From the NCBI RefSeq assembly GCF_013122565.1, contig NZ_CP053258.1: DNA of 64,000 bases. The stretch is one strand, 5' to 3'. How positions within the stretch are numbered: position 1 is the stretch's first letter; every line of letters starts with the position of its first letter. Of the stretch, positions 2,353 to 51,298 are shown piece after piece. Position numbers and translations under genes: made by a program. The notes beneath the pieces were generated by a model. That model had not been told where the DNA came from. It did not search any database and worked only from the letters and a program-made list of their open reading frames with translations. This DNA is from Escherichia coli. Its GTDB lineage: Bacteria; Pseudomonadota; Gammaproteobacteria; Enterobacterales; Enterobacteriaceae.

Positions 2353-3510
2353 CTACCGCTCTTCATCCAGTTGTAACGCCACATACAGCAGCAACCTGTC
2401 ATCAAAATTGCCCAAATCAAGCCCGGTCAGTTCCGATATACGATTAAGCCGATACTCCAGAGTATTACGATGAATAAACAGCGCCTTTGACGTAGCCAGC
2501 GGTTGCACATTGTGGCGAAACCACGCCGCCAGCGTTCGTCGCAGCAAGCCGTTATTGTCCATCGCTTTCAGCCGCGCCAGCGGTCGCGCCAGTTCGTTGG
2601 CCTGCCAGTCGCCACGCAAACTGTCGAGTAACACAGGTAACATCAGATCCTGATAAAAATAGCAGCGACTTTCTGGCATCCGCTGTTTACCCACCACCAT
2701 CGTCGTTTTCGCCGTACGATAGGATCGGGCAATACTGCCAGGACCGGTAAAATAGTTGCCCAGCGAAACGCGAAAACGCAGCTGGCCGTACTCTTTCATG
2801 CGGGTAATCAGTTGTTCAACTCGCTTACGATGATCTTCTGCATCCCAGCGCCCAAAAGAGTTCAACGCCGGTTTCAACACCACCATTTCGGTCAGCGAAA
2901 CAATTGCCACCAGATTATTACGCTCGGGCGTAGTCAGCGCGTTTTGCAGTTGCTGTAACTCCGCCATTGCGCTGTCCACGCCAAGCTGACCGCTGTCGAC
3001 CTCAACAATAGCCACCACTCGCGGTTGATTGAGATCGATCCCCAGCCGTTGCGCCCATTCCGTAAGTGCGGGAGTATTTTCCTCAGCCTGAATCAGGTTC
3101 ATCACCAGTTCTTCCCGCAAACGGCTATCCTGCGCCAACAGGTGCATCAACCGCGACTGTTCCAGCATCATTTCAGCCGTCATGCAGACCAGTTCGCCAT
3201 ATTTACGCAGGTTCTCTGGTTCACCTGTCAGGCCAATTACGCCGACAATTTCACCTTCCAGCCGTAACGGTAGATTAATCCCCTGCCGCACACCGTGCAG
3301 ATGACGTGCCACCGCGTCATCAATATCGACGACTCGTCCCTGTGAAAGCACCAGCAATGCACCTTCGTGCAATTCACCAATACGCTCACGATCGCCGCTG
3401 CCGATAATTCGCCCGCGGGCATCCATTACGTTGATATTGGTATCGATGATGCGCATGGTTCGTGCCACGATATCCTGCGCCATTTTGGTATCAAGATGCC
3501 AGCCAGCCAT
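2353..3510 (-). CDS. cdaR: Carbohydrate diacid regulator CdaR (SdaR)
   Basis: Track ORF 2353..3528; the recognised N-terminus MAGWHLDTKMAQDIV begins at the second Met (3510); C-terminal helix-turn-helix region present. Confidence 0.88.
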   Translation of the reverse strand: MAGWHLDTKMAQDIVARTMRIIDTNINVMDARGRIIGSGDRERIGELHEGALLVLSQGRVVDIDDAVARHLHGVRQGINLPLRLEGEIVGVIGLTGEPENLRKYGELVCMTAEMMLEQSRLMHLLAQDSRLREELVMNLIQAEENTPALTEWAQRLGIDLNQPRVVAIVEVDSGQLGVDSAMAELQQLQNALTTPERNNLVAIVSLTEMVVLKPALNSFGRWDAEDHRKRVEQLITRMKEYGQLRFRVSLGNYFTGPGSIARSYRTAKTTMVVGKQRMPESRCYFYQDLMLPVLLDSLRGDWQANELARPLARLKAMDNNGLLRRTLAAWFRHNVQPLATSKALFIHRNTLEYRLNRISELTGLDLGNFDDRLLLYVALQLDEER

Positions 3511-21337: not shown

Positions 21338-23767
21338 TCACGAATACTTTTTCGTCCGTCGCGTCGGTGCCGTGTTTGCCGGGTCATCCGGCCAGACGTG
21401 TTTGGGATAACGCCCTTTCATCTCCTTTTGCACCTCACGATACGCCCCTTTCCAGAAGGCCCCCAAATCACGCGTGATTTGCAGCGGCCTTTGGGCAGGG
21501 GAAAGCAACTCCAGCACCAGCGGCACGCGCCCCTGGGCGATCGTCGGATTGGTGGCCTCGCCAAACATCTCTTGCATTCTCACCGCCAGCGCGGGCGGGT
21601 TATCTTCATGATAACGAATGGCGATCCGGCTTCCCGTCGGCACAGTGTAATGCGCAGGCAATTCACTATCCAGACGTTGCTGCATTCCCCAATCAAGTAA
21701 TCCGCGTAGTGCCTGATAAATGTCGAGTGATTTCAGGCCGCGTAGTGAATGTACACCGGCCATATGTGGCAGCAGCCACGTTTCCAGCGTCGCCAATAAA
21801 CTTTCATCATCAACCGCTGGCCAGTCATATTCTGGCAACCACTTTGCGGCGCATAACAAACGCAAGCGTAGCTGTTCCGCTTCCGCCGTCCAGTTGAGCA
21901 CGCTTAAACCTTTATCACGAATGCCGTTAAGCATCGCCTGATGCAACTCGTCTTCTGACGGTTTCGCCAGTGGCTGCACTTTCACCGTCAACTGACCGAT
22001 TTGCAGCCGACGCCAGGCTTTCAGCGTACCTTGCGCGTCATCCCATTCCACGGTGTCAGATTGCTGCACCAGCTGCGGACAGCGTTGTACTAATTCATCA
22101 ATATCGACCGGTAGCGCCAGTAAAATCCGCGCATCCGGCGAGGCGCTGCCCTGCAATAATAACGGTGCGATCAACCATTCGTGGCGGCTTAGCGCGTCGT
22201 CGGCATCGAGCATCGCTCCCATGCCGTTTGCCAGTTGATAGCGTCCATCTTGCCCACGGCGACGAGCAATGCGATCGGCAAACGCCCCGGCAAGTAGCGG
22301 CGCGATAAGCGAACTGTCTGCCTCACCGCCGCGTACGTTTAAGTGTTTTAACAGTTGCTGACTACGTTGCTGCCAGGCTGGTTGATTGCGCGAAAACGCC
22401 ACGCCCAGGTCACTATTGCCCATCCGTGGCGGCTCTTCGAGAATGGCGGCAATTTTTGCCGCGGTAGCAGCTTCGTCGTCGCTCTTTGCGCTAACCAGCA
22501 TTGCCGCTAAACGCGGATCGTTACCCAGCGCTGCCATTTTTTGCCCTTGCGCACTAAGCCGTTCACCGTCCAGCGCCCCTAGCATCTTTAACAGGCGTTT
22601 CGCGGCCAGTAAATTCACTGCTGGCGGTTGATCCAGCCAGCTCATCTGCGCCGGATCGCTGCATCCCCATTGCAGTAATTCCATCAGCAAACCGGAAAGA
22701 TCGCTTTGTAAGATCTCCGGTTCACTTTGCGCGGCAGCGCGTTCTGCTTGTTCTTTGGCGATTAAATGTAGGCAGATACCCGGCTCCAGACGCCCGGCAC
22801 GCCCGGCACGCTGCGTCATCGACGCCTGACTGATTCGCTGAGTAATCAACCGCGTAAGCCCTGTTCGCGGATCAAAACGCGCCACCCTTTCCTGGGCACA
22901 ATCCACCACCAGACGAATACCTTCGATGGTTAAACTGGTTTCAGCAATATTGGTCGCCAGCACCACTTTGCGCATCCCTTGCGGTGCCGGGAGGATCGCT
23001 TTTCGCTGATCGTTTAGCGACAACGCGCCATACAGCGGGCAGAGCAACACATCACTGCCGATGCGCGAAGCCAGTTGTTCCTGCACACGCTGAATTTCTC
23101 CGACGCCAGGTAAAAATAACAGTAATGATCCACTTTCCTGACGCAGCATTTCGGCGGTGGCAACCGCGACGGCTTCGTCAAAACGCTGATGCGCGGGCAG
23201 CGGTAAATAACGGCGTTCAACCGGAAACGAGCGCCCTTCTGAGATGACGACGGGCGCTTCTGGCAGCATTTGCTGCAAGCGGTCGTTGTCCAGCGTAGCC
23301 GACATAATCAGCAGTTTAAGGTCATCACGCAGACCTTGTTGCACATCGAGTAACAACGCCAACGCCAAATCCGCCTGCAAGCTGCGCTCATGAAATTCAT
23401 CAAGGATCACCAATCCAACACCGCTCAGTTCCGGGTCACGCTGGATCATCCGCGTCAGCACGCCTTCGGTAACCACTTCCAGGCGGGTATTCGGCCCGAC
23501 GCAGTTTTGCGCACGCATCCGGTAGCCAACGGTATCGCCTGGCTTTTCGTTAAGCAGCTCCGCCAGCCGTTGCGCGACGTTACGCGCCGCCAGACGACGC
23601 GGCTCCAGCAGGATAATTTTCCCGTTAATGCCGGGATGCGCCAGCAGTTGCAGCGGCAGCCAGGTTGATTTCCCGGCCCCGGTCGGCGCACTTAATAACA
23701 CCTGCGGCGCACAATCGAGAGCGGTAAGTAATTCAGGTAAGACGGCAGCAACGGGCAACGACGACAC
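21338..23767 (-). CDS. hrpB: ATP-dependent RNA helicase HrpB (DEAH-box)
   Basis: Track ORF 21338..23812; the recognised N-terminus (V/M)SSLPVAAVLPELL corresponds to a GTG at 23767 preceded by GGAG; Walker A GAGKST and DEFH motifs. Confidence 0.9.
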   Translation of the reverse strand: MSSLPVAAVLPELLTALDCAPQVLLSAPTGAGKSTWLPLQLLAHPGINGKIILLEPRRLAARNVAQRLAELLNEKPGDTVGYRMRAQNCVGPNTRLEVVTEGVLTRMIQRDPELSGVGLVILDEFHERSLQADLALALLLDVQQGLRDDLKLLIMSATLDNDRLQQMLPEAPVVISEGRSFPVERRYLPLPAHQRFDEAVAVATAEMLRQESGSLLLFLPGVGEIQRVQEQLASRIGSDVLLCPLYGALSLNDQRKAILPAPQGMRKVVLATNIAETSLTIEGIRLVVDCAQERVARFDPRTGLTRLITQRISQASMTQRAGRAGRLEPGICLHLIAKEQAERAAAQSEPEILQSDLSGLLMELLQWGCSDPAQMSWLDQPPAVNLLAAKRLLKMLGALDGERLSAQGQKMAALGNDPRLAAMLVSAKSDDEAATAAKIAAILEEPPRMGNSDLGVAFSRNQPAWQQRSQQLLKHLNVRGGEADSSLIAPLLAGAFADRIARRRGQDGRYQLANGMGAMLDADDALSRHEWLIAPLLLQGSASPDARILLALPVDIDELVQRCPQLVQQSDTVEWDDAQGTLKAWRRLQIGQLTVKVQPLAKPSEDELHQAMLNGIRDKGLSVLNWTAEAEQLRLRLLCAAKWLPEYDWPAVDDESLLATLETWLLPHMAGVHSLRGLKSLDIYQALRGLLDWGMQQRLDSELPAHYTVPTGSRIAIRYHEDNPPALAVRMQEMFGEATNPTIAQGRVPLVLELLSPAQRPLQITRDLGAFWKGAYREVQKEMKGRYPKHVWPDDPANTAPTRRTKKYS

Positions 23768-23840
23768 AAAACGCTCCAGAGGGTTAACATTCTTCGCGCC
23801 ACATTGTAGCATCGCGGTAATTCATAACCGAGTGCCTCAC

Positions 23841-25090
<1,250 letters not shown>

Positions 25091-25267
25091 TAAAGTATGT
25101 AACTGGTTAATTTACATTCTGGTCGCGTGCGCAAATACGCTTTTCCTCACACAGTTGTCAAGTGTTACGTTTAGATAATTGCTATCCGGAAAAGCATCTG
25201 CTATTTATAGCGGCCTCATTTTTCCCCCGAACATGGGGATCGATAGTGCGTGTTAAGGAGAAGCAAC

Positions 25268-25723
25268 ATGCAAGAAGGGCAAAACCGTAAAACATCGTCC
25301 CTGAGTATTCTCGCCATCGCTGGGGTGGAGCCATATCAGGAGAAGCCGGGCGAAGAGTATATGAATGAAGCCCAGCTGGCGCACTTCCGTCGTATTCTGG
25401 AAGCATGGCGTAATCAACTCAGGGATGAAGTCGATCGCACCGTTACACATATGCAGGATGAAGCAGCCAACTTCCCGGACCCGGTAGACCGTGCAGCCCA
25501 GGAAGAAGAGTTCAGCCTCGAACTGCGTAACCGCGATCGCGAGCGTAAGCTGATCAAAAAGATCGAGAAGACGCTGAAAAAAGTGGAAGACGAAGATTTC
25601 GGCTACTGCGAATCCTGCGGTGTTGAAATTGGTATTCGCCGTCTGGAAGCGCGCCCGACAGCCGATCTGTGCATCGACTGCAAAACGCTGGCTGAAATTC
25701 GCGAAAAACAGATGGCTGGCTAA
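25268..25723 (+). CDS. dksA: RNA polymerase-binding transcription factor DksA
   Basis: 151-aa sequence [31 protein letters not shown]... with C4 zinc finger ([26 protein letters not shown]); recognised as DksA. Confidence 0.97.
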
Positions 25724-25751
25724 TTACAGCCGTTCCATCACGTTTACCACA

Positions 25752-25779
25752 GGCGGGAAATGCTCCCGCCTTATTTTTT
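25752..25779 (+). terminator. Rho-independent terminator downstream of dksA
   Basis: ggcggga-aatgc-tcccgcc stem-loop followed by ttatttttt; lies 28 nt after the dksA stop and 10 nt upstream of the gluQ ATG at 25790. Confidence 0.75.
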
Positions 25780-25789
25780 GTTCAAAGAG

Positions 25790-26686
25790 ATGACAGACAC
25801 ACACTATATTGGCCGCTTCGCCCCCTCTCCTTCCGGCGAGCTTCATTTTGGTTCTCTGATTGCTGCGCTTGGCAGCTATTTGCAGGCTCGCGCCCGGCAA
25901 GGTCGCTGGCTGGTACGCATTGAAGATATCGACCCGCCTCGTGAAGTTCCCGGTGCCGCAGAAACTATCCTGCGCCAGCTGGAACATTACGGTCTGCACT
26001 GGGACGGCGATGTTCTCTGGCAATCGCAACGTCACCACGCCTATCGCGAAGCACTCGCCTGGTTACATAAACAAGGACTAAGTTATTACTGCACCTGCAC
26101 GCGTGCGCGTATTCAAAGCATTGGTGGTATTTACGACGGTCATTGCCGGGAATTGCATCATGGACCAGATAACGCCGCAGTGCGTATCCGCCAGCAGCAT
26201 CCGGTCACCCAGTTTACTGACCAGCTGCGCGGCATTATTCACGCCGAAGAAAAACTGGCGAGGGAAGATTTTATTATTCATCGCCGTGATGGTTTGTTTG
26301 CCTATAACCTGGCGGTGGTGGTGGATGATCACTTCCAGGGCGTGAGCGAAATTGTCCGCGGGGCAGATTTGATCGAACCGACAGTGCGGCAAATCTCGCT
26401 GTACCAGCTTTTTGGCTGGCAAGTGCCAGATTACATTCATCTGCCGCTGGCGCTTAATCCACAAGGCGCTAAACTTTCCAAGCAGAATCATGCGCCTGCG
26501 TTGCCGAAAGGCGATCCACGCCCGGTACTAATCGCGGCACTTCAATTTCTGGGGCAGCAGGCAGAAGCACACTGGCAGGATTTCAGCGTCGAGCAAATCC
26601 TTCAGTCAGCCGTCAAAAACTGGATGCTGACCGCCGTGCCTGAGTCGGCAATTGTAAATTCAACATTCTCAAATGCGTCATGCTGA
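25790..26686 (+). CDS. gluQ: Glutamyl-Q tRNA(Asp) synthetase (GluQ-RS, YadB)
   Basis: Class I aminoacyl-tRNA synthetase-like ORF (HIGH-like motif [10 protein letters not shown]); start set at [10 protein letters not shown] (25790); the track ORF extends to an in-frame ATG at 25760, which would place the dksA terminator inside the ORF. Confidence 0.85.
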
Positions 26687-26745
26687 GCTATGATTAGCCG
26701 CTATTTTTTTGTCCTGAATGATGTTTGACACTACCGAGGTGTACT

Positions 26746-28143
26746 ATTTTTACCCGAGTCGCTAATTTTTGCCGCAAGGTGCTAAGCCGCGAGGAAAGCG
26801 AGGCTGAACAGGCAGTCGCCCGTCCACAGGTGACGGTGATCCCGCGTGAGCAGCATGCTATTTCCCGCAAAGATATCAGTGAAAATGCCCTGAAGGTAAT
26901 GTACAGGCTCAATAAAGCGGGATACGAAGCCTGGCTGGTTGGCGGCGGCGTGCGCGACCTGTTACTTGGCAAAAAGCCGAAAGATTTTGACGTAACCACT
27001 AACGCCACGCCTGAGCAGGTGCGCAAACTGTTCCGTAACTGCCGCCTGGTGGGTCGCCGTTTCCGTCTGGCTCATGTGATGTTTGGCCCGGAGATTATCG
27101 AAGTTGCGACCTTTCGTGGACACCACGAAGGTAACGTCAGCGACCGCACGACCTCCCAACGTGGGCAAAACGGCATGTTGCTGCGCGATAACATCTTCGG
27201 CTCCATCGAAGAAGACGCCCAGCGCCGCGATTTCACTATCAACAGCCTGTATTACAGCGTAGCGGATTTTACCGTCCGTGATTACGTTGGCGGCATGAAG
27301 GATCTGAAGGACGGCGTTATCCGTCTGATTGGTAACCCGGAAACGCGCTACCGTGAAGATCCGGTACGTATGCTGCGCGCAGTACGTTTTGCCGCCAAAT
27401 TGGGTATGCGCATCAGCCCGGAAACCGCAGAACCGATCCCTCGCCTCGCTACCCTGCTGAACGATATCCCACCGGCACGCCTGTTTGAAGAATCGCTTAA
27501 ACTGCTACAAGCGGGCTACGGTTACGAAACCTATAAGCTGCTGTGTGAATATCATCTGTTCCAGCCGCTGTTCCCGACCATTACCCGCTACTTCACGGAA
27601 AATGGCGACAGCCCGATGGAGCGGATCATTGAACAGGTGCTGAAGAATACCGATACGCGTATCCATAACGATATGCGCGTGAACCCGGCGTTCCTGTTTG
27701 CCGCCATGTTCTGGTACCCACTGCTGGAGACGGCACAGAAGATCGCCCAGGAAAGCGGCCTGACCTATCACGACGCTTTCGCGCTGGCGATGAACGACGT
27801 GCTGGACGAGGCCTGCCGTTCACTGGCAATCCCGAAACGTCTGACGACGTTAACCCGCGATATCTGGCAGTTGCAGTTGCGTATGTCCCGACGTCAGGGT
27901 AAACGCGCATGGAAACTGCTGGAGCATCCTAAGTTCCGTGCGGCTTATGACCTGTTGGCCTTGCGAGCTGAAGTTGAACGTAACGCTGAATTGCAGCGTC
28001 TGGTGAAATGGTGGGGTGAGTTCCAGGTTTCCGCGCCACCAGACCAAAAAGGGATGCTCAACGAGCTGGATGAAGAGCCGTCACCGCGTCGCCGTACTCG
28101 TCGTCCACGCAAACGCGCACCGCGTCGTGAGGGTACCGCATGA
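26746..28143 (+). CDS. pcnB: Poly(A) polymerase I
   Basis: Nucleotidyltransferase family ORF ([10 protein letters not shown]); track ORF starts 26725, but E. coli pcnB is reported to initiate at a non-canonical AUU codon, giving (M)[16 protein letters not shown] at 26746 (465 codons); stop overlaps folK start. Confidence 0.85.
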
Positions 28144-51259: not shown

Positions 51260-51264
51260 CGGCT

Positions 51265-51298
51265 CTGGCGGAGCTCCCAGGCTCCGCCAGATTTATTT
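51265..51298. terminator. Bidirectional terminator between convergent speD and yacL
   Basis: ctggcggagc-tcccag-gctccgccag 10-bp stem followed by atttattt; abuts the yacL stop. Confidence 0.7.

Follow-up and report, generated by a model that had tools for sequence, protein, structure and literature searches.

A partly leaky rho-independent terminator inside the Escherichia coli dksA-gluQ operon, with gluQ expressed by read-through and started at the downstream ATG

How is gluQ expressed when a transcription terminator stands directly in front of it, and at which codon does its translation begin? Both questions are raised by a 64,000-nt stretch of E. coli DNA (hereafter the window, to whose positions all coordinates refer unless another sequence is named), in which dksA and gluQ follow each other on the + strand. 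A preliminary description of this DNA had noted a GC-rich stem with a T-run ending 10 nt before an ATG at 25790, and a longest in-frame open reading frame (ORF) that starts earlier, at 25760, so that the terminator could lie either upstream of gluQ or inside it. In its view, gluQ expression seemed to rest either on read-through of the terminator or on translation from 25790 behind a weak Shine-Dalgarno (SD) sequence. The evidence assembled here leads us to conclude, with a probability of about 0.9, that the element is a rho-independent terminator within the dksA-gluQ operon and is partly leaky, that gluQ is reached by read-through and that its translation starts at 25790. The features of the junction are the following.

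25268-25723, + strand: dksA coding sequence, 151 aa (NCBIfam NF008045 and PGAP); the operon is driven by the dksA promoters
25724-25750, + strand: 27-nt spacer from the dksA stop codon to the hairpin, read from the sequence
25751-25771, + strand: terminator hairpin (5' arm 25751-25758, loop AATGC 25759-25763, 3' arm 25764-25771)
25760-25762, + strand: ATG in the hairpin loop, which opens the longest in-frame ORF (308 aa) and is the K-12 reference start
25772-25779, + strand: terminator T-run TATTTTTT, directly 3' of the stem
25780-25789, + strand: 10-nt leader GTTCAAAGAG between the T-run and ATG 25790, without a functional SD
25790-26686, + strand: gluQ (gluQRS, yadB) coding sequence, 298 aa, tRNA glutamyl-Q(34) synthetase

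The identity of both genes was established by profile and structure matches. The dksA product hit the DksA equivalog NCBIfam NF008045 with 346 bits (cut-off 289), and the gluQ product hit the GluQRS profiles NCBIfam NF004312 with 622 bits (cut-off 453) and TIGR03838 with 380 bits (cut-off 277). Both YadB structures in the PDB (1NZJ/4A91, E = 7e-202) derive from the 298-aa protein and match the long ORF from residue 11 to residue 308. In the best-matching genome, PGAP annotates dksA at 25268-25723, gluQRS at 25790-26686 and pcnB from 26746 (window coordinates).

The dksA gene ends with a TAA at 25721-25723. The hairpin that follows it pairs the arms AGGCGGGA and TCCCGCCT around the 5-nt loop AATGC through eight base pairs, six of them G-C, with a predicted energy of -14.5 kcal/mol (ViennaRNA). 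Intrinsic terminators consist of a G+C-rich stem of ~5-14 bp with a short loop and a U-run of ~7-9 nt placed no more than 2 nt from the stem, and they lie on the coding strand shortly past a stop codon. The dksA-gluQ hairpin has such a stem and loop, the T-run TATTTTTT (25772-25779) abuts it, and the whole element stands on the + strand, 27 nt after the dksA TAA. The position given in the preliminary description for the GC stem and T-run, 10 nt 5' of the gluQ ATG, was correct in all its coordinates, and the longest in-frame ORF does run from 25760 for 308 aa, its ATG being inside the hairpin loop. In the minimum-free-energy fold, a weak helix between the U-run and AAAGAGAUG (25772-25792) also covers the gluQ start codon; we do not regard it as significant, since its A-U and G-U pairs contribute no more than a few kcal/mol and other genera have a different leader, and it is probably without meaning.

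We then asked how often such an element would be met in this DNA. A strict scan of both strands of the 64-kb window, requiring a hairpin of -12 kcal/mol or lower and at least six T in eight positions, returned 7 sites, whereas 20 mononucleotide shuffles averaged 1.0, and the expectation of finding one on the right strand of the 66-nt dksA-gluQ gap is ~5e-4. A strict-scan site in this gap, on the correct strand and right past the stop codon, is not there by chance. A looser terminator scan of a 3-kb region showed no enrichment (5 found, 3.4 expected), with the dksA-gluQ site as its strongest match, and the stricter scan of the whole window was therefore used. The other strict-scan sites lie at 51264-51291 (+), 51801-51772 (-), 59928-59956 (+) and 32736-32707 (-), and a further one, at 58316-58335, was picked up in both orientations and may be a bidirectional terminator.

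Within the species the locus is nearly universal. The 1.55-kb segment 25200-26750 found a match in 5424 of the 5426 complete E. coli genomes, where the genes around the junction keep the order sfsA-dksA-gluQ-pcnB, and the 101-nt junction itself is at least 99% identical in 4954 of these 5424. Over the segment 25200-26750, only 7 of the 5424 complete genomes reach 99% identity and most lie between 95 and 99%; judged by this comparison, the window comes from an uncommon and somewhat divergent E. coli lineage at the dksA-gluQ locus. Its GluQ carries H at residue 5 of the 298-aa form, where K-12 has Q, and several further substitutions. The most divergent E. coli of the collection, AF16 (NZ_OZ547176.1, 151-236), has a junction 93% identical to that of the window. 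It shares the stem, the T-run, the leader and the 25790 ATG with the window unchanged; the first bases past the dksA stop differ, and its loop reads AATTAC instead of AAATGC and so contains no ATG. AF16, labelled E. coli, may belong to a cryptic Escherichia clade.

The same junction has been studied experimentally in Shigella flexneri by Caballero et al. (2012, BMC Microbiol 12:226; PMC3542578). The terminator of S. flexneri 2457T occupies the same locus and forms the same hairpin with an AUG in its loop; another AUG follows 27 nt further on, an SD is lacking, and the published stem energy of -14.7 kcal/mol compares with -14.5 kcal/mol in the window. The S. flexneri intergenic sequence is identical to that of K-12, and the window differs from S. 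flexneri in nothing of substance, one residue of the N-terminal region being changed (TDTH in the window, TDTQ in S. flexneri). RT-PCR detected a dksA-gluQ-rs co-transcript in S. flexneri (PMC3542578). The lacZ fusion pVCDT, which extends from dksA +58 to gluQ-rs codon 5 and lacks the dksA promoters, stayed at baseline activity, including when the pH was altered or glutamate supplied, and gluQ-rs therefore has no promoter of its own (PMC3542578). A fusion ending at the dksA stop codon produced 10-fold more lacZ activity than one that included the intergenic region, and mutations that disrupted the stem raised downstream lacZ expression more than 2-fold (PMC3542578). These measurements were made with reporters on multicopy plasmids, in a strain different from that of the window. 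Single-nucleotide RNA-seq of E. coli K-12 revealed a dksA-specific transcription unit that ends at an internal terminator and sits within a ligT-sfsA-dksA-yadB-pcnB-folK operon (Conway et al. 2014, mBio 5:e01442-14, PMC4161252).

To evaluate ribosome binding, the 20 nt upstream of each start were paired with the 3' end of 16S rRNA. The duplex energy was -9.2 kcal/mol for dksA, which has the strong SD AAGGAG, -6.3 kcal/mol for the loop ATG at 25760 and -1.7 kcal/mol for the gluQ ATG at 25790, a value that 64% of all + strand ATGs in the window equal or better. The bases AAGAG directly abut ATG 25790, which is not a canonical SD-led start, and the region from -20 to +20 around it folds weakly (-4.1 kcal/mol). 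The SD-like AGGCGGG of the loop ATG is the 5' arm of the stem. The same calculation across 78 species gave a median of +0.4 kcal/mol for gluQ starts, with 4% at -4.4 kcal/mol or lower, versus a median of -8.8 kcal/mol for dksA starts, all 69 of which scored -7.3 kcal/mol or lower; the -20 to +20 region had a mean folding energy of -3.0 kcal/mol at gluQ versus -6.2 kcal/mol at dksA. On these predicted energies, the absence of an SD at gluQ is a family-wide feature. Its extension to 78 species adds a little to what had been published for a single one, S. flexneri, whose gluQ-rs was described as having 'no obvious Shine-Dalgarno' (PMC3542578).

Translational coupling, for which a stop codon is expected within a few nt of the start, is unlikely between dksA and gluQ because the dksA stop lies 66 nt upstream. 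Coupling through an out-of-frame ORF, 25620-25793, whose TGA overlaps ATG 25790, was also considered. This ORF, as listed, has just a GTG within dksA (25620) as its start and runs in another reading frame, and the candidate was rejected because the ATGA overlap is not conserved, the second codon of gluQ varying among species (TCT, CCT, TCA, ACA and others).

Direct evidence on the N-terminus points to the downstream ATG. Edman sequencing of S. flexneri GluQ-rs, produced by T7 overexpression, yielded TDTQYIGRFAP, which corresponds to the second ATG, position 25790 of the window (PMC3542578). In native E. coli K-12, Table S1 of the TRAINSPOTTER N-terminomics study (Nucleic Acids Res 2026, PMC13245402) lists the peptide MTDTQYIGR for b0144 as an alternative initiation site with an 'N-terminal truncation (10aa)'. 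The peptide comprises residues 11-19 of the 308-aa UniProt entry, and the start inferred in that table, NC_000913 160082-160080, is 25790-25792 of the window (PMC13245402). The ribosome-profiling columns of this row are blank, and the Table S1 rows listed include none for b0144 at the annotated 308-aa start, which is weak evidence (PMC13245402). Beyond PMC3542578, PMC4161252 and PMC13245402, our literature search found no follow-up on the dksA-gluQ terminator and no Term-seq report naming gluQ.

These data settle the points that the preliminary description had raised. The terminator lies upstream of the real gluQ start, as placed at 25790 by Edman sequencing and N-terminomics. Reliance on read-through is upheld by the missing promoter between dksA +58 and codon 5 and by the ~10-fold rise seen without the terminator, and a start at 25790 with a weak SD is upheld by both N-terminal determinations and by the anti-SD energy of -1.7 kcal/mol, so that the two possibilities, posed as alternatives, are true together. 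The transcript mapping and N-terminal proteomics that it had called for exist in published RNA-seq (PMC4161252) and, for the b0144 peptide of Table S1, in published N-terminomics (PMC13245402), and both agree with it. An independent gluQ promoter and initiation at 25760 have each been sought experimentally, and neither was found.

To place the junction in its family, a pattern scan for the conserved C-terminus of dksA was carried out, which recovered 120 loci from different species. The comparison set comprised the 91 Enterobacterales loci with the gluQ N-terminal motif RFAPSPSG less than 700 nt past dksA plus the window, 92 in total. In 78 of these 92 loci the RFAPSP motif is preceded by an ATG at a distance of 6-10 codons, and in 55 of the 92 that ATG is exactly at -8, as in the window. 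In the other 14 loci (Photorhabdus, Xenorhabdus, Pectobacterium, some Yersinia, Edwardsiella), the starts are further upstream and the intergenic regions are unrelated. The hairpin GGCGGGA-loop-TCCCGCC was found in 35 loci, those of the window and 34 species, and among these a loop ATG is present in the window (E. coli) and in E. albertii only. The 33 hairpin species from other genera, all Enterobacteriaceae and representing at least 15 genera, have loops such as GTTTC, GTCTC, GCGAT or TTAGC and no loop ATG. Five of these 33 species carry an in-frame stop at positions -10 to -19, past the point where the hairpin begins, and no long form is therefore possible there. E. fergusonii has also been reported to keep the terminator and to lack the first methionine (PMC3542578). 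Since the loop ATG is restricted to E. coli and E. albertii, and is absent from AF16, five species have in-frame stops, and the structures contain the 298-aa protein, we conclude that it is an accident of the Escherichia lineage and is not used.

A hairpin of -8 kcal/mol or lower with a T-rich tail, of whatever sequence, is present in 53 of 78 Enterobacterales; elsewhere in the order there are unrelated hairpins at this position or none, and conservation of the 27-nt spacer is confined to Escherichia and Citrobacter. The set of related hairpins had been picked with a regular expression for the GGCGGGA/TCCCGCC core, so that the constancy of the core results in part from this choice and carries no weight as proof. 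In this selected set, 87.6% of the cells are paired, versus 51-57% when the partner is slid. Among 31 distinct hairpins, six core pairs never vary and four pairs (three outer and one inner, 13-20) change on both sides, and the covariation score of this regular-expression-selected set was reached by 21 of 500 shuffles. Because the core is invariant, the signal comes from the outer pairs and the selection is partly circular, no covariation support is claimed for the hairpin.

Two other accounts of gluQ expression deserve consideration. It is highly improbable that the cell really produces the 308-aa form from ATG 25760 as a minor or conditional proteoform, made when a ribosome or high temperature melts the hairpin and AGGCGGG serves as its SD. 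This sequence does pair with the anti-SD at -6.3 kcal/mol and at a reasonable spacing, the 308-aa ORF is open, and 308 aa is the length given both by the K-12 reference annotation (b0144, NC_000913.3 segment 1187-2113, window 25760-26686; 927 nt) and by UniProt P27305. However, the SD-like bases and the ATG are both inside a -14.5 kcal/mol hairpin, Edman sequencing and N-terminomics detected the short N-terminus only, the crystallized protein had 298 aa and PGAP calls the short form. Moreover, 33 of the 34 other hairpin species, and also E. coli AF16, have no loop ATG, and five species have the in-frame stops described above. Experiment and comparison thus agree that the 10-residue extension is not made, and the 308-aa form of the K-12 reference annotation is an artefact. 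The NF004312 profile covers residues 5-308 of the long form, a match that would favour that form, and part of the spurious extension is thus inside the model. A similar case in the window is thpR, whose longest ORF (23628-24371, 247 aa) overshoots the real start, the annotated gene having 531 nt (~23841-24371; best-match segment 142-672). It is likewise very unlikely that gluQ possesses its own promoter, for example one for a stress sigma factor, which would act in conditions beyond those tried and make read-through only one source of gluQ mRNA. Caballero et al. cited a sigma-24 site predicted for gluQ-rs in RegulonDB and did not exclude other conditions (PMC3542578), and a sigma-70-like match, TTCAAA-18-TATATT, is found at 25781-25810. 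Against such a promoter stand the baseline activity of pVCDT in every condition named above and the position of the sigma-70-like site, which ends past the start codon, so that its transcript would begin beyond ATG 25790 and therefore could not encode GluQ; we rejected it as a gluQ promoter for this reason. It scores 9/12, in a region without an excess of such matches (3 found, 2.6 expected).

A further account accepts the terminator and takes it to be conditional, with read-through regulated in such a way that GluQ is switched on in stationary phase or under stress. The candidate regulators would be a protein bound to the GGCGGGA/TCCCGCC stem, NusA, DksA or ppGpp acting on the elongating polymerase, or a ligand-sensing RNA. 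In S. flexneri, the dksA/gluQ-rs junction amplicon increased 20-fold in stationary phase, compared to 1.3-fold for each gene's own amplicon, and the authors left a riboswitch-like circuit or a binding protein possible (PMC3542578). Such a change hints at regulation rather than constitutive leakiness, but a 20-fold difference is poorly supported when it is measured by semi-quantitative end-point RT-PCR. A core of the same 7 bp was met in 33 further species belonging to at least 15 genera, though its flanks cannot be aligned and its invariance is partly an ascertainment effect of the way the hairpins were selected, and in other Enterobacterales the position holds unrelated hairpins or none. Neither a conserved sensor nor an antiterminator fold was found upstream of the hairpin, where the 27-nt spacer is too short and too poorly conserved for an aptamer or antiterminator; no ORF lies in this spacer, and a leader peptide is absent. 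An Rfam scan of 24900-26900 at E-values up to 1 gave no family match at the junction, its sole match being a chance snoRNA inside dksA, and the authors' own riboswitch search was negative (PMC3542578). We therefore consider regulated read-through unlikely. The narrower proposal, that a factor reads the invariant core or that the core is unusually sensitive to DksA/ppGpp-modified RNA polymerase, making the terminator regulated and not merely leaky, is more doubtful still. If regulation were real, stationary phase or osmotic stress would turn on read-through and, as a consequence, the glutamyl-queuosine modification of tRNA-Asp, and dksA would thereby adjust the gene downstream of it through termination.

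Under the preferred reading of a partly leaky internal terminator, transcription would begin at the dksA promoters and most RNA polymerases would stop at the hairpin (25751-25771) and U-run (25772-25779), leaving an abundant dksA-only mRNA. A minority, roughly one in ten by the published reporter data, would read through and produce the gluQ mRNA, gluQ having no promoter of its own. On this read-through mRNA, the 298-aa GluQ would be translated from AUG 25790 without a usable SD, in a weakly structured U- and A-rich leader of which the T-run forms part, and AUG 25760 would go unused, its SD-like bases being locked in the stem. A leaky terminator combined with a poor ribosome-binding site would thus hold GluQ far below DksA. 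Published experiments together with the present comparison establish the structure, the co-transcription, the absence of a promoter, the effect of the terminator and the N-terminus. We infer that initiation at 25790 is SD-independent, for example with ribosomal protein S1 acting on the unstructured leader, and the low GluQ output may well be a selected outcome.

Arrangements of this kind have precedents. Caballero et al. drew parallels to rpsU-dnaG-rpoD, with a terminator before dnaG and an unusual SD, and to recA-recX, with ~10% read-through (PMC3542578). Leaky operon terminators and dksA-gluQ share an intrinsic terminator between co-transcribed genes, a downstream gene without a promoter and with a poor ribosome-binding site, and a downstream product that is a small fraction of the upstream one. 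Apart from the genes involved, dksA-gluQ differs from rpsU-dnaG-rpoD and recA-recX in that its terminator is only 10 nt from the start codon, so the U-run joins the translation-initiation region. As in the preQ1 riboswitches of queuosine genes, the terminator hairpin lies immediately 5' of a queuosine-pathway gene; unlike riboswitch and attenuator platforms, dksA-gluQ has no aptamer, no antiterminator pairing and no leader peptide.

The next gene of the operon was also inspected. PGAP (position 3047 of the best-match segment) starts pcnB at an ATT, 26746-26748. A non-canonical AUU start of pcnB is a known means of limiting the synthesis of poly(A) polymerase I. A promoter-like sequence, TTCTCA-17-TATGAT at 26666-26694, overlaps the gluQ stop codon, and its predicted start at ~26701, which is K-12 position 159171, matches the pcnB-folK promoter 'S-159171' of Conway et al. 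2014 (PMC4161252).

All in all, the reading of a leaky dksA terminator ahead of gluQ is correct but ordinary, having already been published in Shigella and E. coli, and its significance reaches little beyond housekeeping. Its practical side is one of annotation: a 10-residue N-terminal extension persists in b0144 and P27305, while PGAP records already give 298 aa. For the cell, the arrangement explains how much DksA and very little GluQRS are obtained from a single set of promoters, and it ties the wobble modification of tRNA-Asp to the expression of a stringent-response gene.
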